64,000 nt of DNA, taken from sequence record PP449093.1, one strand, 5' to 3'. Position numbers and translations under genes: made by a program. A model generated the notes under the pieces. That model saw only the letters and a list, made by a program, of their open reading frames with translations. It was not told the origin of the DNA and did not search any database. Positions 3,281 through 63,141 of the stretch are shown here, piece after piece (the stretch's first letter is position 1; every line of letters starts with the position of its first letter). This DNA is from Escherichia coli phage phiS.

Positions 3281-3309
3281 TTGACGCGGGGAGAAATCCC
3301 CGCTATAAT
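3281..3309 (+). promoter_or_regulatory. sigma70-type early promoter with stem-loop in spacer (PeSL-like): TTGACG - 17 bp - TATAAT
   Basis: TTGACG 3281-3286, inverted repeat GCGGGGA gaaa TCCCCGC 3286-3303, TATAAT 3304-3309. Confidence 0.6.
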
Positions 3310-3341
3310 ACAACCATCAAAAACAAGTGAGGATTTTTATT

Positions 3342-6281: not shown

Positions 6282-6310
6282 TTGACAATCGGATCGTGGT
6301 ATAGCATAAT
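6282..6310 (+). promoter_or_regulatory. sigma70-type early promoter (PeSL-like, degenerate stem): TTGACA - 17 bp - CATAAT
   Basis: TTGACA 6282-6287, CATAAT 6305-6310, conserved leader ...cccatcgaaacGGAGGaacatATG. Confidence 0.55.
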
Positions 6311-6334
6311 GCACCCATCGAAACGGAGGAACAT

Positions 6335-6553: not shown

Positions 6554-6560
6554 AAAGTAG

Positions 6561-6589
6561 TTGACACTGAATAACGGGGGTAGTAAGAT
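6561..6589 (+). promoter_or_regulatory. PeSL-like early promoter: TTGACA - 17 bp - TAAGAT
   Basis: TTGACA 6561-6566, TAAGAT 6584-6589, imperfect inverted repeat GGGGGTAGTA/TACTCCC around the -10. Confidence 0.55.
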
Positions 6590-6622
6590 ACTCCCATCGA
6601 AACGAAACAAAGGAGAATCAAA

Positions 6623-15313: not shown

Positions 15314-15342
15314 TTGACAGGGGATCACCGATCCCCTATACT
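15314..15342 (+). promoter_or_regulatory. PeSL-like early promoter: TTGACA - 17 bp - TATACT
   Basis: Spacer is the perfect inverted repeat GGGGATC acc GATCCCC. Confidence 0.6.
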
Positions 15343-15387
15343 ACACACATCAAAACGAAACACACTTTCTTAAACGGAGAATCAAAA

Positions 15388-17100: not shown

Positions 17101-17129
17101 TTGACATAAGATCGGGTGTATAGCATAAT
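17101..17129 (+). promoter_or_regulatory. PeSL-like early promoter: TTGACA - 17 bp - CATAAT
   Basis: Inverted repeat GGGTGTAT agcataa TACACCC. Confidence 0.6.
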
Positions 17130-17175
17130 ACACCCATCGAAACGAGATACACTTTCTAACTAGGAGAATCAAATT

Positions 17176-17821: not shown

Positions 17822-17828
17822 TTTTATT

Positions 17829-17855
17829 AGCCGACCTTAGCGTCGGCTTTTTTAT
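17829..17855 (+). terminator. Rho-independent terminator
   Basis: AGCCGAC cttagc GTCGGCT followed by TTTTTT. Confidence 0.6.
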
Positions 17856-17877: not shown

Positions 17878-17906
17878 TTGACACCAGATCACGCCTATAG
17901 CATAAA
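17878..17906 (+). promoter_or_regulatory. PeSL-like early promoter: TTGACA - 17 bp - CATAAA
   Basis: Conserved leader ...cacccatcaaaacgagataccacttaGGAGaatcaaacaATG. Confidence 0.5.
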
Positions 17907-17947
17907 TACACCCATCAAAACGAGATACCACTTAGGAGAATCAAACA

Positions 17948-18225: not shown

Positions 18226-18254
18226 TTGACACTAAAGTAAGAACATAGCATAAT
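18226..18254 (+). promoter_or_regulatory. PeSL-like early promoter: TTGACA - 17 bp - CATAAT
   Basis: Consensus hexamers with 17-bp spacing. Confidence 0.55.
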
Positions 18255-18287
18255 ACACCCATACCGAAACGAACTGGAGAATCAAAA

Positions 18288-18582: not shown

Positions 18583-18611
18583 TTGACGGGGATCGGGAGA
18601 TCCCCTATAAT
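18583..18611 (+). promoter_or_regulatory. PeSL-like early promoter: TTGACG - 17 bp - TATAAT
   Basis: Inverted repeat GGGGATC ggga GATCCCC. Confidence 0.6.
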
Positions 18612-18644
18612 ACACACATACCGAAACGAAATAGGAGAATCAAA

Positions 18645-18826: not shown

Positions 18827-18855
18827 TTGACAGGGGAGGATAACTCCCCTACAAT
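18827..18855 (+). promoter_or_regulatory. PeSL-like early promoter: TTGACA - 17 bp - TACAAT
   Basis: Inverted repeat GGGGAG gataa CTCCCC. Confidence 0.55.
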
Positions 18856-18895
18856 ACAACCATCAAAACGAGATACCACTTAGGAGAATCAAACA

Positions 18896-21242: not shown

Positions 21243-21272
21243 TTGACAGGGGGATCGGTGATCCCCTATAAT
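21243..21272 (+). promoter_or_regulatory. PeSL-like early promoter: TTGACA - 18 bp - TATAAT
   Basis: Inverted repeat GGGGGATC ggt GATCCCC. Confidence 0.55.
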
Positions 21273-21308
21273 GCACACATACCGAAACGAACTACTAAGG
21301 AGTATCAA

Positions 21309-35807: not shown

Positions 35808-37022
35808 ATGGCTTTCACAGTATCAATTAAATCTAACAAAAGATGTTTTCTTGCTGGAGATGGTTTCACCTTAACGGCGACTTTAGCGGGTGACGACCCA
35901 TTACCCAGCAATTTGACATATACATGGACAAAAGACGGCCAACCGCATGAAAATAAAACAGCTACGCTAACTGTAGAAGGCGCAACAAGTGAAAATGCGG
36001 GTAGCTATAAAGTAACGGTACAAGATACCGATACGATGGCATCAGTAGAATCTGAAGTTTTCCTCATGGAAGAAGCGGAATTAATCGTAAATATCACCGA
36101 ACCGCCGCATTTCTACGTATCATCACAAAAAGACGTAGAATTACATGCAACAGTAAATTTTTCGGGTGGGAAGACTCCAGCAGACAACTATGAACTACAT
36201 TATAGTTGGAGTAAGGGCGAAGAAGTTATAGACACAAAACAGAATACTACAATCAAAAAATTTACAGCAGATAAAAACGGCGTGTATACTGTAAAAGTGT
36301 GGGGTGAGTCGGAAAATTCAGCCGATAGCGCATCGACTAAAATCATGCTGGCAACAATGAACGTAGATCAGGATGTGGTGGAATCAAAGACCGTGGCACT
36401 AGGTAATGAGATCTTACTTAATTATGTTGTGTCAGAGGACATTGTAGGCGATTCTAGCGGTATGCCTGAATTGACGATCAAACATAACTGGTATTTGCAG
36501 CGCGAAGGGCAACCGTCACCGACTCTAATCGGTAGTGAGGACGGCGAAGCACTGGAAGGATTTTCTATCACTCCAGACGGTCATCTGTTCAAAGAGAGTG
36601 CTACTTACGATGACACAGCCAAATTCTGGTGTGTTGCTAAACTATATCAACAGATCGAAGATGAAACAGTAGAAGTTGCAGCAAGTACAAGCAGAAAATG
36701 TTCCATTGAAGTTGTTAAAATGTTTCGTTACGTACACCCGATCCCGTGGCGCAAAACTTCATTTATCTACATTGGATGGTGGGTATTTGACGAGATTGTT
36801 AAATTCAATGAGGCTGGGTTAGAGTGGCGTGACCGAGAAGTTTATTCTACCAGCAAGTACGCCAAAGATCTGGAGACAATCGCGGCAGCGGAAGAACAAT
36901 ATAGTGATTGCACTTGCATGGAATCTCGCAATGGTTTCATGTATCATTCCAAAGATTTACATAAACTGGACCGAGATACGTTAGAGCGAGTTCTACGCAT
37001 TCGTGAAACGCATCCTGCTTAA
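35808..37022 (+). CDS. hoc: Head outer capsid protein Hoc-like (tandem Ig-like domains)
   Basis: Repeated beta-rich Ig-like segments (YTWTKDG, GSYKVTV, GVYTVKVWG); terminator downstream. Confidence 0.65.
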   Translation: MAFTVSIKSNKRCFLAGDGFTLTATLAGDDPLPSNLTYTWTKDGQPHENKTATLTVEGATSENAGSYKVTVQDTDTMASVESEVFLMEEAELIVNITEPPHFYVSSQKDVELHATVNFSGGKTPADNYELHYSWSKGEEVIDTKQNTTIKKFTADKNGVYTVKVWGESENSADSASTKIMLATMNVDQDVVESKTVALGNEILLNYVVSEDIVGDSSGMPELTIKHNWYLQREGQPSPTLIGSEDGEALEGFSITPDGHLFKESATYDDTAKFWCVAKLYQQIEDETVEVAASTSRKCSIEVVKMFRYVHPIPWRKTSFIYIGWWVFDEIVKFNEAGLEWRDREVYSTSKYAKDLETIAAAEEQYSDCTCMESRNGFMYHSKDLHKLDRDTLERVLRIRETHPA

Positions 37023-37033
37023 TGAAATCTATC

Positions 37034-37059
37034 AGCCATCCTTCGGGGTGGCTTTTTTG
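37034..37059 (+). terminator. Rho-independent terminator
   Basis: AGCCATCC ttcg GGGTGGCT followed by TTTTTTG. Confidence 0.65.
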
Positions 37060-37222
37060 TTTTTGTGCTCGACAGAGCGATTTAGAGGCATATAATGGCA
37101 CGCATCGACCTGCTACTGTCATAGTGAGGCGAAGAAAATATTATGAATATGGGGTTGAAAATGGCGTTGATAACTGTTACTGTCCTATTCGTTGTTGTGT
37201 TTATGAATGTATGAGGTGAAGT

Positions 37223-37420
37223 ATGAATGAGATTGTACGATTGATCAAAGAAGCATCAATCGAGATGTATTTTCTGGCTTTGGTTGCAACAATGGTCTAT
37301 CAGCTAGTCGCATGTCATGTGTGGAAGTCAGAAAATGCGTTTATCCGGTTTATTGGTACTGTCATGATCCAGTTTCCGGTACTGATCACTATCCTGTTAA
37401 TCGTCAATGGGGCGAAGTGA
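37223..37420 (+). CDS. Small membrane protein (two predicted TM helices)
   Basis: Hydrophobic segments FLALVATMVYQLVA and VMIQFPVLITILLIV. Confidence 0.4.
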   Translation: MNEIVRLIKEASIEMYFLALVATMVYQLVACHVWKSENAFIRFIGTVMIQFPVLITILLIVNGAK

Positions 37421-37695
37421 TGGACAAGAAAACAGCGTTAATGGTTTACATGCTACGCGAAGACCACGGTCTTAATTTTGTTGATATTGCTAAGAAGATT
37501 GGCGGGATCAGCGGACAAGATGCGGCTAAGGCATGGTTGATGGTAAAAGATGCACGCGAGGCTTACGCCAGCCGTGAAAAGGTTGTTTATCGTAAACACC
37601 ACATCAACAAAAAATTTAAAAATAAAGTTCAAAAACGTGTTGACATGCCAAATAACACTGTTATAATGGACGCATTCAAACGGGCAATGTCCTGA
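37420..37695 (+). CDS. Hypothetical protein (91 aa)
   Basis: ATG overlapping preceding stop (TGATG). Confidence 0.4.
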   Translation: MDKKTALMVYMLREDHGLNFVDIAKKIGGISGQDAAKAWLMVKDAREAYASREKVVYRKHHINKKFKNKVQKRVDMPNNTVIMDAFKRAMS

Positions 37696-37741
37696 TTTGT
37701 AATTAATATTCTGAATAACTAATCAATAGAGGTGACTAATT

Positions 37742-38179
37742 ATGAAATTCCGTAAAAACCACGTAGCAATGAAAAAGGCAATGTTCGAAGCATTCAAAGC
37801 AGTTGATCAGGGCGGTGTTACTCTGATTGAGCAAATTAATGTTGATGTTTGGCAATCTCCGGCGATCACTTGCTCCCGTCTTGCTACGGCTGGCCTTCTG
37901 AAAGTTCACAGCTCTACCGCATACGACGAAGCATTGCAAGTTATTAAGGCTTTTGCTGGAGACGTTACCAGCAAGTGGGTCTATGAGAATAAAGGTGAAA
38001 TTGCGGTTGCTCACGTAGGCAACAATATCCAGATGGAAATCAAGATTAAGGAAGGGTCTAAACGCAATCAGATGCTTGTTCGCTTCCAGCCATACAAAAC
38101 TAACGTAGTGCCGGATGATCTGATCATCTCTAAGAGTAATGTTACCATTCGCCGAAATCAGATCGTTATCAACAAATAA
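37742..38179 (+). CDS. Hypothetical protein (145 aa)
   Basis: GAGG RBS; terminator downstream. Confidence 0.5.
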   Translation: MKFRKNHVAMKKAMFEAFKAVDQGGVTLIEQINVDVWQSPAITCSRLATAGLLKVHSSTAYDEALQVIKAFAGDVTSKWVYENKGEIAVAHVGNNIQMEIKIKEGSKRNQMLVRFQPYKTNVVPDDLIISKSNVTIRRNQIVINK

Positions 38180-38187
38180 TTAACATT

Positions 38188-38213
38188 AGCCGTCCTTCGG
38201 GGCGGCTTTTTTG
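38188..38213 (+). terminator. Rho-independent terminator (near-copy of the 37034 terminator)
   Basis: AGCCGTCC ttcg GGGCGGCT followed by TTTTTTG. Confidence 0.65.
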
Positions 38214-38592
38214 TATCTGTTATTAACATAATTTTAGTTTACATGTGCACAATATTAATACTGTTTGATTAAATTATGATCAAAACGAAGAAAGATCTTT
38301 AGAACATAGAAAATGTATCTTTGGTTAATTATTAATCACTACATATTGTAACACAAATGTTATACTCCGTAGGAGTTCGCGAAGCGATATCCTTTTGTGT
38401 AGTTTTTACATGTATGATTAAATTATGATCAAAACGAAGACTTATCTTATAGAATAATAAAAATTTGTTTCGAACATTTATTAATCAATTACTGGGAGTG
38501 TTTTATTGCTCGCTGTGCTCGCTTCCGCTACGCGGATACTTGTATTTGTTATTAACTTGTAGTATGATATTGCTTTCTATGGAGGAAATATT

Positions 38593-39180
38593 ATGTTTGA
38601 CCAGTTACAAGATCTATTTGGAGTAAAACCACTTCGTAGATGTGCTTTAATCGGCTCTAGAAAAGCGCCTAGCGACATTTTGATAATGGCTAGTACCATT
38701 GGGAGGGTATTGTCAGAAAATCGCGTTGTAGCGCATTCTGGAGGGGCTTACGGTATGGACAATGCTTTCATGAAGTATTACGATCCAGATTATAGAAAAA
38801 TTTTCATTCCAAATTGGAAGTTTTATGACCACAAGCATAACGGGCATGATGTGATTGCATGGCAAACCTTAGAACAAAAAAATCTGGCGATGGATGAATT
38901 AGAACATGTTTATGATAATCCTCGTTCTATACCGTTATACATGCAAAATCTGTTTTCTAGAAATGTTGCTCAAGTCTTAGGTGAGACACTTGATGACCCT
39001 GTAGATTGTGTGATATTTTGGGCGAAAGAAGTTAATGGAATCGTTTCGGGAGGAACTAGAATTGCTGTTTATGTTGCCCGTAGACATGGGATACCATGTT
39101 TTAACTTATATCATCAAGAAAATAGATCCGCCGTCGAAAAAATCTTGGGCGGATCTGACTTGTCTTGGTTAGATATTTAG
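38593..39180 (+). CDS. DprA/Smf-like (SLOG-type Rossmann fold) protein
   Basis: ALIGSRKAP, HSGGAYGMDNAF and GIVSGGTRIAVYVARRHGIPCFNL resemble the DprA/LOG nucleotide-binding family. Confidence 0.45.
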   Translation: MFDQLQDLFGVKPLRRCALIGSRKAPSDILIMASTIGRVLSENRVVAHSGGAYGMDNAFMKYYDPDYRKIFIPNWKFYDHKHNGHDVIAWQTLEQKNLAMDELEHVYDNPRSIPLYMQNLFSRNVAQVLGETLDDPVDCVIFWAKEVNGIVSGGTRIAVYVARRHGIPCFNLYHQENRSAVEKILGGSDLSWLDI

Positions 39181-40422
39181 TTAAGCGTTGTCAATCTCAA
39201 GCGGTGGCAGTTCGATTCCTAAAATGTAGGACATTTCTGAACGTCCAGCCATTTTACCCCAATCGTCACCCTTGATGACCTGGTGTTCTTCCTGATCAAC
39301 TTTTGATGTATATGGGTTGACAGAGAGTGAATAACGATTCATAATAGCTACATGATGCTGGAAGCTATTAGGGTCAATTACACTCTTATACGCGCCAGCG
39401 CCGTCGGCTTCTGTATATGGGGAGTAGAACAGAGAACCTACACTCTCCATATCACCGATCATGTGCTTACAACCAACGAGCATATAATCGAAAGGTGTTG
39501 TCGTGTCTGCGTACACTTCCAGACCGCAACGTAGACGACCTTCGCTTAGAGCATTGTCGGTTTCTTCCATCCATCCGGTAGATTGCAGGAGGCCAACCAC
39601 GCGAGAAGACGCCAAAACGTATGTACCAGCAAAGGAGGAAGTCCGCAACATTTGATTGCTCATTTCGCAAGCATAGCGGTAAAGTTCACGCGCTTGTGTT
39701 GGTGCATCCTGAACGCTAACGAGAGAAAGTATGCCATCAGGGGTGATCCCTTTAATTTTATAGCGAGATGATACAGTGATCAACTTCTGAATAATATCTT
39801 TGTTGATCTCTTCGGAAGCAACAGTAGCCAGAAGATCAATTACAGAGTTTTCAGAGTTGATTTGGCTTGCCTCAAGATCCTGCATTAATTCAGTGGTGAA
39901 CGAGGTTTTCAGTTTACGGGAACCTACATTAACCTGCCATTTATCAAACTGCATAGAGGTAGACGAAATTTCGGTGTTTTTATCTTCAAAGTATTCTACC
40001 GATGCACAATCGCTATAGAAACGAATTTTGTTTGTCATTATGCCTTTAAAGATTGCAGCTTCTGGAGTTTCGGCATCTTCACCGACTGTACCAGCGGTTA
40101 CAACTTCGTATACAACATCGTCTGATTTGAATAGTGCGCCTTCGTCATAAGATTTTTCTTTTGAAAACTCTTCAATCTCTGTGCGATCACCAGCCGCGCC
40201 ACCATAGGTTGTAGCAGTTCGGAAAGTCATCTGACCATCACGATTAAGATAACGTAGGCCGTACAATGCAGATACTGGTTGATCCGTTGGCTGGATTGCT
40301 ACCAGGTCAGAGAAAATCAGGTTGTTTACCGCGCGAGTTAATGATAATAGTTGCGGTCGCGCTGTCTGGTTAGCTACTGAGGAAGTAGATTCCCGCAACA
40401 GTTCAGTAAAAATATGAGTCAT
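39181..40422 (-). CDS. 24: Head vertex protein gp24
   Basis: N-terminus MTHIFTELLREST... parallels T4 gp24; gp23-like fold signature; late promoter 40462-40469. Confidence 0.85.
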   Translation of the reverse strand: MTHIFTELLRESTSSVANQTARPQLLSLTRAVNNLIFSDLVAIQPTDQPVSALYGLRYLNRDGQMTFRTATTYGGAAGDRTEIEEFSKEKSYDEGALFKSDDVVYEVVTAGTVGEDAETPEAAIFKGIMTNKIRFYSDCASVEYFEDKNTEISSTSMQFDKWQVNVGSRKLKTSFTTELMQDLEASQINSENSVIDLLATVASEEINKDIIQKLITVSSRYKIKGITPDGILSLVSVQDAPTQARELYRYACEMSNQMLRTSSFAGTYVLASSRVVGLLQSTGWMEETDNALSEGRLRCGLEVYADTTTPFDYMLVGCKHMIGDMESVGSLFYSPYTEADGAGAYKSVIDPNSFQHHVAIMNRYSLSVNPYTSKVDQEEHQVIKGDDWGKMAGRSEMSYILGIELPPLEIDNA

Positions 40423-62215: not shown

Positions 62216-63066
62216 GTAGCAACCCCGATTTTAATAGTGTCTACGGCTTTAACTGCTAAACGAATATTTTCGCCAGTAGCCTTATACTCTGCATATACTT
62301 TATCGCCGGAACCGATGAAATAACGAACTTTGTATAGCTCATCTTCTGTCTTCTGCAAAACTGCATATTCCGTCGCATAAACTTTTCCGGCTTTAGAATC
62401 AATCATCAGTAGCGTTTCACTTGAACGCATTTTTGAACCGGATGTATTGCTAGCGGTAGTTAATAATTTGATGGAAACGTATTCTGTTTTTGCGGCAATA
62501 GCAACGTTTGTTGCTACTCCAGTTACGTTAACTGTTTTATCTAATGGCATTGTTGTATCGGTAAACATACTTTCGATACCCAATCGCCATGTTACGCGAC
62601 TACCTTCAACGGCAGTACACCAAACAGTGACTTTTGAGAAAGGTTGAGTTATTACCGCGTCACCTGAATACCCGCTAATAGAATCACCTGCTTGAGTTCG
62701 AATATTGAGCGGTGTCGTCGTTGAAAAGCTACCGTTACTATTTATGAATACAACACCCTCACCAACCTTTGCTTTAGGTAGAATAGCAATAAGTGCGCCT
62801 TGAGTTGTATCGATATCGTGTAGACTCCCAATCTCAACAGCGGAACCAGCGTAGCTTTGACGTGGATGTTTCTGATAGTATCCGGTTGCATGAATAACCA
62901 TTCTTCCCACGCCGTGGTCTATGTCTTTAAACCGTTGATCAGCGAATGCGTCATAGATTGAATCAAAGTTATCGTTAATTTTATTACCGCCATCATATAA
63001 GATATCGCCAGTCGATGGATTGCCGACAGTACCTGTGTCTATTCTTTTCTTTGGAACTTGTGCCAT
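62212..63066 (-). CDS. 9: Baseplate wedge / long tail fibre connector gp9
   Basis: N-terminal IDTGTVGNPSTGDILYDGGNKINDNF and C-terminal KIGVA resemble T4 gp9. Confidence 0.8.
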   Translation of the reverse strand: MAQVPKKRIDTGTVGNPSTGDILYDGGNKINDNFDSIYDAFADQRFKDIDHGVGRMVIHATGYYQKHPRQSYAGSAVEIGSLHDIDTTQGALIAILPKAKVGEGVVFINSNGSFSTTTPLNIRTQAGDSISGYSGDAVITQPFSKVTVWCTAVEGSRVTWRLGIESMFTDTTMPLDKTVNVTGVATNVAIAAKTEYVSIKLLTTASNTSGSKMRSSETLLMIDSKAGKVYATEYAVLQKTEDELYKVRYFIGSGDKVYAEYKATGENIRLAVKAVDTIKIGVAT

Positions 63067-63141
63067 TGTTTAATTCCTCATGTTATGATGTATTATTTAT
63101 AAAATACATACAAAAAAGCCGCCCACAAGGACGGCTTATAA

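Follow-up and report, generated by a model that had tools for sequence, protein, structure and literature searches.

The 413-bp gap at positions 38180-38592 of the 64,000-nucleotide stretch of phage DNA analysed here (the window) consists of two tandem copies of a cassette of about 150 bp each, with a core of about 80 bp and about 20% G+C. We tentatively interpret the gap as a DNA-level control region, in which two cassettes specific to RB49-like phages would be bound by a protein and set the activity of the adjacent promoter, a reading that we hold to be possible rather than probable. For the cassette itself a protein-bound control module is the most likely role and a replication origin a less likely one. 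The source phage is a Krischvirus, an RB49/phi1/JSE-like T4-type coliphage, and the cassette is best read as a relative of the PeSL (promoter-early stem-loop) elements, the mobile regulatory cassettes of phi1 and RB49 (Arbiol et al. 2010, PMC2839356; Comeau et al. 2014, PMC4122927).

The gap is located between a 145-aa ORF and a DprA/SLOG-like gene; the stop codon of the former ends at 38179 and the ATG of the latter is at 38593, hence its length of 413 bp. It is the sole stretch of more than 285 bp in the 64-kb window without an ORF of at least 40 aa, and also the longest run without an ORF of at least 60 aa, in agreement with the initial annotation, which had described an unusually long non-coding gap of about 410 bp. 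The DNA is AT-rich (27-30% G+C) and placed between a stop codon and the next Shine-Dalgarno and start. A 53-aa ORF with a TTG start (38465-38626) overlaps the start of the DprA-like gene and has neither a Shine-Dalgarno sequence nor conservation, and none of the small ORFs in the gap has a Shine-Dalgarno sequence or a conserved frame. Hidden small ORFs were accordingly rejected; two mini-ORFs of the diverged relative L005 (MEHTRSCNN and MKHTRSCNN) have no counterpart in the other lineages. Reading-frame preference is absent from the gap, tblastx similarity being found in all frames and on both strands. Its first feature is the intrinsic terminator of the upstream early operon (38188..38213, + strand), AGCCGTCC-TTCG-GGGCGGCT followed by T6, which at 38188-38207 has the 8-bp stem (6 G-C pairs), TTCG loop and TTTTTT run of a Rho-independent terminator and for which several relatives in GenBank carry a terminator annotation. 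The two near-identical terminators reported for this region are indeed present: the paralogous one, at 37034-37053, has the same make-up (8-bp stem, TTCG loop, T-run) and is 86% identical to the copy at 38188 over 36 nt.

The internal direct repeat that had been noticed earlier is confirmed as an exact 26-nt duplication, TGATTAAATTATGATCAAAACGAAGA, at 38266-38291 and 38415-38440 (0 expected in shuffles); even when 3 mismatches are allowed, the window contains no third copy. It is contained in a larger duplication of 77-78 nt (38262-38338 versus 38411-38487; 78% identity, spacing 149), and the sequence tttacatgt upstream of the repeat also occurs twice (38238 and 38405), across an 18-nt indel. 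Each cassette comes after the terminator of the transcription unit before it and has first a 15-bp dyad box over the -35 position of a weak promoter core, then a conserved -10-like hexamer and a very AT-rich stretch of about 40 bp, at whose end a second 15-bp dyad box is placed; one or two GC-rich triloop mini-hairpins come next, and directly after them the promoter and Shine-Dalgarno sequence of the following gene. Core copy 1 (38263..38343, + strand, about 23% G+C; alignments A7 and A8) scores 49.6 bits with model R1 (E=7e-14), and core copy 2 (38412..38490, + strand, about 19% G+C) scores 43.6 bits (E=6e-12). The -10-like hexamer of unit 1, TAGAAC (38300..38305, + strand), aligns with the TATAAT/TAGAAT of other copies and lineages (A7, A8), and that of unit 2, TAGAAT (38450..38455, + strand), likewise placed by the alignments, has TGATCA 18 nt before it. 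A conserved GCTCGC-TGT-GCTCGC motif (38508..38522, + strand; alignment A4) has its counterpart in GCTCACTGCGTTCGC in lineages L030 and L032, and in a true hairpin, GCGAGC-TTTT-GCTCGC, in L029.

Beyond what the initial annotation could see, the repeat belongs to a dispersed family of four copies. In the whole RB49 genome model R1 finds only these four, at 62.8, 97.6 and 150.0 kb; two of them are the tandem pair of the gap, the third precedes gene 3, and the fourth is in the interval from the gp35-like to the gp36-like tail-fibre gene. All 58 Krischvirus genomes have about four such places each (230 in total). The four copies share the same orientation relative to the downstream gene, each adjoins a promoter, and within a genome they appear to evolve in concert. 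Those before gene 3 and the gene-36-like gene directly precede late promoters. Within about 10-20 nt after the mini-hairpins comes TATAAATA or AATAAATA. TATAAATA marks the late genes of the phage, for instance 34 nt upstream of gene 23; it is absent from the gap, which thus has no T4-type late promoter.

In 58 of 58 Krischvirus genomes the gap is kept at full length (413±2 bp) with 95-99.8% identity and without gain or loss, its identity per segment being about the same as that of the flanking genes and not clearly above that of coding DNA within the genus. Compared with L005 the identity is only about 65%, near our estimate for neutral sites. The order DUF2774 - orf~145 - gap - DprA-like - gp24 is common to five metagenomic lineages; in these relatives the DprA-like protein is 50-87% identical and the gap measures 326-574 bp, with 2-3 tandem units. 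Conservation is strongest upstream of the -10, while the segment downstream of it varies in sequence and length and is always AT-rich. Although the sequences themselves diverge, the lineages retain the box consensus, the -10 box and the pairing of the hairpins. A protein-guided viral scan yielded one diverged locus (L005) and two near-identical Krischvirus loci, a metagenome scan two close relatives (L021 and L022), and the useful distant relatives were obtained by protein search and subsequent look-up of contigs. Scanning viral contigs with exact 16-mers and with 14-mers gave almost nothing beyond chance matches. No RNA-seq or intergenic study of Krischviruses was found in the literature. The earlier suggestion that the gap is functional rather than junk is borne out by the retention of its length and sequence in 58 genomes and of its tandem layout down to 50% identity of the flanking protein.

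All four dyad boxes of the gap match GNNYAWWWWWTRNNC, the high-affinity consensus of Escherichia coli Fis as quoted in PMC3302801. Box 1a (GATTAAATTATGATC, 38267..38281) is a perfect fit, box 2a (GGTTAATTATTAATC, 38323..38337) is in addition a near-palindrome, and the corresponding boxes of the second unit are 1b (GATTAAATTATGATC, 38416..38430) and 2b (GAACATTTATTAATC, 38472..38486), none of them being assigned to a strand. The 64-kb window contains seven matches to GNNYAWWWWWTRNNC, four of which fall within these 413 bp, where dinucleotide shuffles of the gap predict 0.05. The gaps of the relatives contain 6, 5, 6, 2 and 1 boxes, versus 0-2 in their flanks, with differing box sequences; L033 has one consensus box only, box 2 being missing. 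The box centres are at about -96, -152, -245 and -301 from the predicted proximal start, and the distance between box 1 and box 2 ranges among lineages from 53 to 65 bp.

The arrangement resembles the Fis-dependent promoter regions of rrnB P1, tyrT and leuV, and of proP P2 with its site at -41, in that clusters of GNNYAWWWWWTRNNC are placed in easily melted AT-rich DNA upstream of or overlapping a promoter. At proP P2 Fis works from the site overlapping -41, and at the leuV promoter it transmits duplex destabilisation to the promoter. The resemblance does not extend to helical phasing: the classical upstream activating sequences are phased at about -71/-102/-143, whereas the boxes of the gap are spaced 56, 93 and 56 bp apart, and two copies of the cassette precede late promoters, which are read by gp55-RNA polymerase. 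Moreover, the degeneracy of the Fis consensus means that a palindromic, AT-rich repeat such as this could match it and yet never bind Fis. As for binders encoded by the phage, T4 DsbA binds late promoters, and the note to the RB49 dsbA annotation also states late-promoter binding. The neighbouring proteins DUF2774 and orf145, considered as box binders, gave no informative match in PDB, Pfam or PHROG; DUF2774 is also present in phage JD18, which is without the cassette. Compared by eye, the gap contains no convincing match to the consensus sites of DnaA, IHF, PurR, TyrR or ArgR, and its GATC (Dam) sites are not enriched (3 in 413 bp versus 5.5 per kb window-wide).

The promoter next to the cassettes is a predicted sigma-70-type promoter of the DprA-like gene, TTGTAT-17-TATGAT (38540..38568, + strand), followed by the Shine-Dalgarno sequence GGAGG (38581-38585) and the ATG of the DprA-like/SLOG gene at 38593 (together 38581..38595, + strand). 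On our own approximate PWM it scores 8.5 bits, which is moderate in comparison with the 12-15.5 bits of the window's canonical early (PeSL) promoters. A comparable promoter is found at the same place in five of six lineages, with 8.2-10.8 bits in L005, L029, L030 and L032. Within the units, a -10 (TATAAT/TAGAAT) is placed 17-19 nt after xTGAxC in nearly all cases and reaches 8-12 bits in L029, L030 and L033. On the same PWM the in-unit promoters of the window are poor (below 5 bits, the unit cores scoring below 7 bits), unit 1, with TAGAAC, lacking the key final T, and a simple consensus scan of 38180-38592 gave no promoter on the + strand. Two further candidates were rejected: a canonical early promoter inside the repeats, where the ATCAAAACGA leader has no -10/-35 at the canonical distance, and minus-strand promoters, which score well in L005, L029 and L030 but neither in the window nor at conserved positions.

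Three mini-hairpins were found on the + strand of the gap. HP1 (ACTCC-GTA-GGAGT, 38364..38376) has 5 pairs and is 100% paired across 5 lineages, 2 of the pairs showing compensatory double changes; it overlaps a candidate extended -10, TGtTATACT, at 38358-38366. HP1b (TCGC-GAA-GCGA, 38377..38387) is 94.7% paired, with double changes in 2 pairs, and contains both GCGAAGC (38379-38385) and TTCGCGAA (38376-38383). The palindrome that had been listed near 38375 is this TTCGCGAA; it is not free-standing and belongs to a conserved GCGAAGC mini-hairpin. HP2 (TCCGC-TAC-GCGGA, 38524..38536), which abuts the -35 of the proximal promoter, is 100% paired in 6 lineages with compensatory double changes in 2 of 4 pairs, and on the minus strand it reads GCGTAGC. 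In the two hairpin alignments, 97.7% and 100% of the cells are paired. The compensatory changes all lead from one Watson-Crick pair to another, G-U intermediates being absent, and the triloops are of the DNA type (GNA); with stems of 4-5 bp, these hairpins are not polyG/polyC stems. GCGAAGC, CCGAAGG and CCGTAGG are known as DNA mini-hairpin motifs at single-strand initiation sites of phages and plasmids (PMC13037366), and motifs of this class are about 17-fold enriched in the gap. The heptamers d(GCGAAGC) and d(CCGAAGG) of G4-type origins, RSF1010 ssiA and the N4 early promoters (PMC13037366) are identical to those of the cassette, which also includes the variants CCGTAGG and GCGTAGC and shares the compensatory stem changes and AT-rich neighbours. 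These systems, however, involve single-stranded DNA of phages or plasmids, or a dedicated virion RNA polymerase. The surrounding duplex is weak as well: at a scale of 100-400 bp the gap is the least stable part of the window, and three of the four cassette copies occupy the genome's three weakest 100-bp windows, the copy at 150 kb not being among them.

The features described above lead us to favour the control module, for which a mechanism can be outlined. We infer that the dyad boxes are bound by a dimeric architectural protein, most likely host Fis because all four boxes fit the high-affinity consensus exactly, or alternatively a double-stranded-DNA-binding protein of the phage such as DsbA. 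Such binding, on DNA that melts more easily than any other here, would control how the neighbouring promoter of the DprA-like gene fires. Transcription arriving from upstream would be kept off this promoter by the terminator and the mini-hairpins, and the copies would stay alike through gene conversion, as in PeSL-type recombination. Among the functions proposed earlier, that of a regulatory leader or control region is accordingly the best supported one. Against it count the unphased spacing of the boxes, the degenerate consensus, the single consensus box of L033, the moderate strength of the proximal promoter and the unremarkable degree of conservation; in addition, most of the same features fit an origin model equally well, and two of the four copies precede T4-type late promoters, which are not known to use upstream elements.

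The kinship with PeSL elements is based on several likenesses. Both occur in the same phage group as intergenic composites placed after a stop codon and before the following Shine-Dalgarno sequence, both bring together AT-rich DNA, a promoter and a GC stem-loop, which in the cassette takes the form of triloop mini-hairpins of 4-5 bp, and both exist in repeated copies exchanging sequence, as concerted evolution suggests for the cassette; the ATCAAAACGA leader motif of canonical PeSL promoters is found in the cassette unit too. They differ in that a PeSL has a near-consensus TTGACA-17-TATAAT (12-15.5 bits), usually with a GGGG..CCCC stem in its spacer, whereas the cassette core is without a consensus promoter and has instead about 80 bp of AT-rich DNA, two dyad boxes and triloop mini-hairpins. 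There are about 50 PeSL elements per genome, mostly before ORFans in hyperplastic regions, as against four cassettes, which precede gene 3, the gene-36-like gene and the DprA-like gene. Late promoters are not mentioned by Arbiol et al. 2010 (PMC2839356), and the present family would widen the concept of mobile regulatory cassettes, known from PeSL elements, to a second type that differs in structure and is linked to late genes. Depending on its role, the cassette could represent origins, an upstream element of late promoters or a route for Fis, a growth-phase protein of the host, into phage gene expression. Krischviruses are used in phage therapy cocktails, and it therefore matters for their engineering to tell dispensable intergenic DNA from control elements.

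Several other roles were weighed. It is rather unlikely that the cassettes are replication origins primed by transcription (R-loop origins), as T4 oriF and oriG are, with a weak promoter, dependent on a factor at box 1 in the role of the MotA box, firing into the AT-rich segment of about 40 bp as unwinding element; the annealed RNA would prime the leading strand, the GC mini-hairpins would mark the border on the displaced strand, and the genome would have three origin loci, the tandem pair of the window being one of them. T4 ori(uvsY)/oriF and ori(34)/oriG resemble this proposed arrangement: they are modules of about 100 bp, in which a promoter without a normal -35 has a factor site instead and an unwinding element downstream, and they too occur at several loci per genome, near strand switches and in the same gene neighbourhoods. 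The minimal T4 origins consist of a promoter and a downstream AT-rich unwinding element, about 100 bp in all, the unwinding element having no sequence requirement, and T4 oriE has an early promoter and direct repeats, with oriE, oriF and oriG all near strand-switch regions (PMC3016281). In the cassettes, the -10 at its regular distance from xTGAxC, the conservation upstream of it and the variable AT-rich DNA downstream are the pattern expected of a promoter and its unwinding element; the coincidence of three copies with the genome's lowest duplex stability and the abundance of mini-hairpins of the single-strand-initiation type are also consistent with it. None of the three cassette loci is more than about 5 kb away from where RB49 has its equivalents of the oriE, oriF and oriG neighbourhoods (genes 3-5, uvsW-24 and 34-36; T4 positions partly after PMC3016281), and two of the three are within 0.6 kb of a strand switch. 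Against this stand the poor in-unit promoters of the window, the loose correspondence to the T4 positions, which was noticed post hoc, the exclusion of the 150-kb copy from the least stable windows, and the fact that every copy points to and abuts a downstream promoter, which an origin would not need. T4 oriF and oriG use MotA-dependent middle promoters; no motA annotation is present in the inspected part of the RB49 genome, and Desplats is said to have described in 2002 only early and late promoter classes for RB49. No common sequence motif is known for T4 replication origins, whereas the cassette units are a sequence family, so that homology provides no argument here. The fuller proposal, that the four copies at three loci are RB49-type origins, made of sequence-defined, factor-dependent promoter and unwinding modules capped by mini-hairpins and replacing the MotA-dependent T4 origins in the neighbourhoods of oriE, oriF and oriG, is unlikely; on it, Fis at the dyad boxes could gate origin firing. 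The support for the earlier mention of an origin-like site is thus circumstantial and consists of the low duplex stability, the promoter-like core followed by an AT-rich segment and the DNA-type mini-hairpins. A recognisable family of fixed copy number at the three most easily melted spots would nevertheless give a concrete target for the question of how replication starts in T4 relatives without MotA.

Small RNA genes, which had also been proposed, are the least supported of the earlier suggestions, and it is clearly improbable that the units, in tandem like the small RNA genes of LhrC or PrrF1/PrrF2, encode a small multi-copy non-coding RNA starting at the in-unit promoter and ending at the GC hairpins and a T-rich run. 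The layout is that of such a gene (a terminator, a promoter-like core, about 60-95 nt, a hairpin with a T-rich tract and the next promoter), the copies evolve in concert, and the hairpins show compensatory changes. Unit 2 can also form a long hairpin between box 1 and box 2, as can several relatives (z -3 to -6.7 in L029, L030 and L033); since it is strong in some lineages and absent in others (L005 and L032), and weak in unit 1, it was dropped as a defining feature. A long-range pairing of GCGAAGCGA with TCGCTTCCGC around unit 2 was also set aside, as by eye it competes with HP2 and is not conserved across lineages. An Rfam search of 36500-39500 gave no family, only sub-threshold terminator look-alikes, and single-sequence folds of both strands gave weak z-scores, -0.9 to -1.3 for the units and the whole gap on the + strand. 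RNAalifold of four unit cores produced only a local stem of 6 pairs, with a covariation term of +0.12 and no net covariation support, covariation being limited to the terminal mini-hairpins, where the exclusively Watson-Crick exchanges and GNA triloops point to DNA. HP2 was flagged as terminator-like, with a 5-bp stem and an interrupted T-run, but the T-runs begin 2-5 nt after short stems of 4-5 bp and the hairpins would make poor intrinsic terminators. The promoter in the units of the window is weak, and the best-conserved segment (box 1 and ATCAAAACG), upstream of the -10-like box, would fall outside the putative RNA. Tandem small RNA pairs such as PrrF1/PrrF2 and the REP/BIME and ERIC elements resemble the cassette as short palindromic intergenic repeats after terminators with tandem copies that are alike, and BIMEs bind architectural proteins, but the cassette belongs to a phage genome, has only four copies and is without a conserved RNA fold. 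A decayed gene can be set aside more firmly. More distant phages do have an ORF in this slot, as had been considered: the order in JD18 is DUF2774 (24.3) - hypothetical - hypothetical - rnlB - DprA-like - gp24, with no gap, in Matisse rnlB is located 94 bp upstream of the DprA-like gene, and T4 has this RNA ligase gene in the slot as well. A tblastn search with both RnlB proteins against the gaps of six lineages gave nothing better than E=1, and the gap therefore does not derive from a gene disrupted recently. Its repeated architecture, which is shared between lineages and recurs at two further loci, and the lack of a tblastx frame preference also oppose this highly improbable reading, which is effectively refuted. 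It is quite unlikely, finally, that the units are selfish or neutral recombination modules, "empty" PeSL-like cassettes left by swaps of small ORFs, with a functionless core, that persist by gene conversion and by supplying a terminator and a promoter. The roughly 50 promoter/stem-loop cassettes of RB49/phi1 recombine, form mini-circles and shuffle ORFans, and hoc is PeSL-associated (PMC2839356); the occupation of the slot by rnlB in other T4-type phages indicates a plastic site, the divergence from L005 is roughly neutral, and a motif of the units, ATCAAAACGAAGA (38279..38291, + strand), also occurs in the canonical early (PeSL) promoters of the phage, in their +1/leader region. Tandem repeats, however, should easily be lost in a highly recombinogenic phage, whereas four copies and a length of 413±2 bp are fixed in 58 genomes and tandem units persist down to 50% protein identity; the box consensus, -10 and hairpin pairing are retained despite sequence change, and the PeSL hallmarks (TTGACA/TATAAT and the GGGG..CCCC stem) are missing from the units. 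If the gap were only a recombination-homogenised spacer between terminator and promoter, the result would be modest, yet it would explain the largest non-coding gap of this genome region. The recombination site proposed earlier is supported indirectly, by the concerted evolution, the PeSL kinship and a 17-nt direct repeat, TTGTATCTGTTATTAAC (38211..38227, + strand; family D7, 94% identity), whose second copy (38540-38556) constitutes the -35 and spacer of the proximal promoter. The pair brackets the two-unit insert, each copy adjoins a hairpin, and nowhere does the gap vary more among Krischviruses than at the junction just past the terminator (38212-38232); read by eye, L005 has an analogous, lineage-specific pair of direct repeats.

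The stretch at 38180-38592 lies in a region shared throughout Krischvirus: for the 2.3 kb around it, 58 phage records match at 90-99% identity, all belonging to that genus (RB49, phi1, JSE, GEC-3S and others), and the match coordinates place the window at about 72-136 kb of RB49 in reverse orientation. The local gene order runs from uvsW (minus strand) through an inh-like gene (plus), hoc (35808-37022, plus, followed by a terminator), orf65, the gene of a DUF2774 protein annotated as gp24.3 (37420-37695) and a 145-aa ORF (37742-38179), which is followed by a terminator and the gap. Directly 3' of the gap stands the DprA-like/SLOG gene (38593-39180, plus), with gp24 and gp23 beyond (both minus). 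Two strong sigma-70 promoters would drive the small-gene cluster, one directly past the hoc terminator (37069-37096, TCGACA-16-TATAAT) and one within the DUF2774 gene at its 3' end (37640-37667, TTGACA-16-TATAAT with a TG extension). The genes on the upstream side of the gap are therefore probably early, although T4 expresses hoc late. The terminators at 37031-37066 (+) and 38185-38220 (+) are two of a small set of almost identical intrinsic terminators that share the form AGCCNNCCTTCGGGGNGGCTTTTTT; the others stand at 17826-17853 (+) and 63108-63136 (-), the last adjoining a copy of the late-promoter sequence TATAAATA at 63094-63101. Compensated changes set the stem at 37034 apart from the one at 38188 (A-T versus G-C).

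The initial annotation described an unusually long, ORF-free intergenic region with an internal direct repeat, and, at 413 bp, the gap is indeed the longest part of the window in which no ORF reaches 60 aa and the only part of at least 150 bp in which none reaches 40 aa; its G+C drops to 27-30%. The repeat is borne out by the 26-mer TGATTAAATTATGATCAAAACGAAGA, of which the window has just two exact copies, at 38266 and 38415 (0 expected), within a duplication of 77 nt at 78% identity and a 149-bp period. Both terminators, and the palindrome TTCGCGAA, likewise lie where first reported. No small ORFs with a Shine-Dalgarno were found in the gaps, and tblastx between gaps returned similarity in all frames and on both strands. 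A 53-aa TTG ORF (38465-38626, plus) lacks a Shine-Dalgarno, is not conserved in relatives and is probably spurious; it overlaps the promoter and start of the DprA-like gene, and some GenBank records carry it as a hypothetical protein or fused to the downstream gene (SSG23, UPWr_E1).

Relatives with a normal ORF here, disrupted in this genome, had been named as the finding that would overturn this view. An ORF does occupy the slot elsewhere: rnlB (RNA ligase 2) lies directly upstream of the DprA-like gene in JD18 (L036, 791-2346) and Matisse (L035, 753-2343), compared with 37742-39180 of the window, and also in T4. A remnant of RnlB was sought in all gaps and nothing was found; with no frame preference in tblastx and no RnlB signal, a gene or decayed gene (rnlB) is essentially refuted. 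The 145-aa ORF has weak similarity (E=2e-5 in L033, a diverged relative's contig) to the JD18 gene beside DUF2774, in the 24.2 position. Together with the placement of rnlB, this identifies the slot as the T4 '24.3 - 24.2 - rnlB - 24' position with rnlB replaced; RB49-type phages carry a non-coding cassette pair where other T4-type genera have rnlB.

The gap is of full length in 58/58 Krischvirus genomes, with identity of at least 99% in 41 of them, and in a comparison by segment it shows 97.3-99.5% identity, much like the flanking genes. Among 13 aligned genomes, substitutions cluster in 38212-38232, directly past the terminator, and the repeat cores and hairpins are nearly invariant. In L022 (OQVL01003522.1), a recombinant metagenomic contig from a close relative, the intergenic region is 98.3% identical and the adjacent ORF 92.9%; this contig follows the window at 88% identity from hoc to about codon 61 of the DprA-like gene (about 38770) and then diverges completely, an abrupt change that points to a recombination breakpoint within that gene.

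More distant lineages (n=5) were obtained by protein search and subsequent contig look-ups, as short contigs covering this locus. Identity of their DprA-like proteins to that of the window is 87%, 70%, 59%, 57% and 50%, and the gene order DUF2774 - orf~145 - long gap - DprA-like - gp24 is common to them; of this order the partial L032 contig covers only the part from the gap through the DprA-like gene to gp24. Each gap, of 326-574 bp, holds two or three tandem units. Across the six lineages compared, whose units are not independent, units are more alike within one phage than between phages (26 identical nt in L030 as in the window, 40 in L033, and about 100 nt at roughly 90% in L005). At their 3' ends, though, the first and the last unit each have orthologues in the other phages; these patterns together indicate that the tandem arrangement is old and that the copies evolve in concert. 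In L005, the lineage at 87%, about 170 extra bp (2270-2440) separate the proximal promoter from the DprA-like ATG; within them lie CTAAAATC...GTTTTAG-type inverted repeats, and they could be a structured leader or other inserted element.

A unit has four parts, namely dyad boxes, a -10-like hexamer, triloop mini-hairpins and, past the last hairpin, a sigma-70-type promoter. There are two boxes per unit, of 15 bp and spaced 53-65 bp apart; those of the window (GATTAAATTATGATC twice, GGTTAATTATTAATC and GAACATTTATTAATC) all four fit the degenerate consensus GNNYAWWWWWTRNNC, quoted as the E. coli Fis high-affinity site (PMC3302801). Four of the seven matches in 64 kb lie within the gap, against 0.05 expected from dinucleotide shuffles of the gap itself, and the remaining RB49 genome has five. 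The relatives' gaps hold 6, 5, 6, 2 (partial contig) and 1, versus 0-2 in their flanks, with box sequences that differ from the window's and obey the same consensus. The hexamer between the boxes, TAGAAC or TAGAAT in the window and TATAAT in most relatives, stands 17-19 nt past xTGAxC, which would centre box 1 near -38 and box 2 near +17 relative to a hypothetical start.

The mini-hairpins lie at 38364-38376 (ACTCC-GTA-GGAGT), 38377-38387 (TCGC-GAA-GCGA, including GCGAAGC) and 38524-38536 (TCCGC-TAC-GCGGA), and their loops are of the GNA type. Across lineages, 97.7% of cells are paired at 38364-38387 (compensatory double changes in 4/9 pairs) and 100% at 38524-38536 (2/4 pairs), with 17-47% in register-shifted controls; all stem changes are from Watson-Crick to Watson-Crick. 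The heptamers GCGAAGC, CCGAAGG and GCGTAGC have been called 'extraordinarily stable DNA mini-hairpins' and placed at phage and plasmid initiation sites (PMC13037366); in the gap, the enrichment of mini-hairpin heptamers is about 17-fold. The promoter is predicted at 38540-38568 (TTGTAT-17-TATGAT), with GGAGG and then ATG on its 3' side, and scores 8.5 bits on our own approximate PWM; counterparts in the same place in four other lineages score 8.2-10.8 bits on this matrix. The late promoter TATAAATA was sought in the gap and is absent from it.

Promoter-early stem-loop (PeSL) cassettes, first described in phi1 and RB49 at about 50 per genome, combine a consensus sigma-70 promoter with a GC stem-loop, recombine and form mini-circles (PMC2839356). 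Canonical PeSL early promoters were located in the window at 3281-3316, 6282-6327, 6560-6606, 15314-15359, 17101-17146, 17880-17924, 18226-18270, 18583-18628, 18827-18872 and 21243-21290, in the form aaaaagttgTTGACA, a GGGG..CCCC or similar spacer and TATAAT; all but those at 6560 and 17880 are textbook cases, with aaaaagttgTTGACA, GGGG..CCCC, TATAAT, 6 nt and ATCAAAACGA. The strongly conserved +1/leader motif of the whole set, ATC(A/G)AAACG(A/G)(A/G) or ATACCGAAACGAA, starts 6 nt past the -10, leads to ...GGAGAATCAAA-ATG, and could be a promoter-escape aid, a translational enhancer or an RNase site. ATCRAAACGRR occurs eight times in the window versus 0.49 expected, six times at PeSL promoters and twice within the gap's repeats. 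The leader motif is thus common to both, whereas the consensus promoter is missing from the unit core: neither -35 nor -10 stands at the canonical distance from the gap's leader motifs, and on the approximate PWM the unit cores stay below 7 bits where canonical PeSL promoters reach 12-15 bits, which marks the units as relatives rather than members of the PeSLs.

A sequence-only model, built from 11 units in six lineages and searched against the window and the remaining RB49 genome, finds exactly four copies, two in the gap and two dispersed. One dispersed copy, at RB49 149,999-150,073 (35.6 bits), is preceded by a terminator and lies in a 203-bp gap between gp35-like and gp36-like tail-fibre genes; the other, at RB49 62,810-62,884 (minus strand, 33.2 bits), lies in a 189-bp gap upstream of gene 3. 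The cassette regions span RB49 149,995-150,159 (segment L156, 13996-14160) and 62,765-62,925 (segment L157, 12765-12925, minus strand). Their layout is core, GTGCC-TAC-GGCAC, GTCGC(G/A)AAGCGA, 10-20 nt, TATAAATA (AATAAATA in the gene 3 copy), leader, Shine-Dalgarno and ATG. TATAAATA is a mark of late genes in this phage (at gene 23, for instance, it lies 34 nt upstream), and both copies directly adjoin, on the upstream side, the late promoters of the gene-36-like tail-fibre gene and gene 3; no upstream elements are known at T4-type late promoters. In the dispersed copies the centre is nearly identical to unit 1 and the 3' arm is like unit 2, a mixed likeness that we attribute to gene conversion. 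A selfish or neutral repeat is a doubtful reading of this family, which occupies about four places in every one of 58 Krischvirus genomes (230 in total), always oriented toward the downstream gene.

By nearest-neighbour energies, the gap is the window's least stable duplex at 100, 200, 300 and 400 bp, with deviations from the mean of 3.3-3.9 sd, and the three least stable 100-bp windows genome-wide are the gene-3 copy and the two gap units; the 150-kb copy is of low stability, outside the ten least stable windows. Action at the DNA rather than the RNA level is favoured by conserved dyad boxes, DNA-type hairpin loops, a weak signal of RNA folding, a long hairpin that varies from lineage to lineage, and conservation that peaks upstream of the -10-like box; an sRNA gene, among the initial suggestions, appears quite improbable. 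The main rival is a T4-style replication origin, which we consider unlikely. The minimal T4 origin is a promoter with a factor site replacing the -35, plus a downstream AT-rich unwinding element, and oriE, oriF and oriG lie near strand switches (PMC3016281). The three cassette loci are in gene neighbourhoods corresponding to oriE/oriF/oriG and two adjoin strand switches; however, this positional match is loose and was noticed post hoc, and the in-unit promoters are weak in the window.

Our tentative preference is that the cassette may be a control and insulator module that lies upstream of a gene and is bound by protein. The dyad boxes, on DNA that melts very easily and follows a terminator, would be occupied by a dimeric architectural protein that modulates the adjacent promoter. 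The mini-hairpins would serve as boundaries, and the likeness of the cassette copies would be maintained by recombination. Fis is a candidate box binder that fits by consensus; phage DsbA is an alternative candidate, since two copies adjoin late promoters, to which DsbA was reportedly linked by Gansz et al. in 1991. Outside the cassettes, the promoter region upstream of gene 32 (RB49 141,964-142,063; L156 5965-6064) is the tied third-least stable 100-bp window, level with unit 2 at -1.087 kcal/mol per bp, and only three cassette copies rank above or equal to it.
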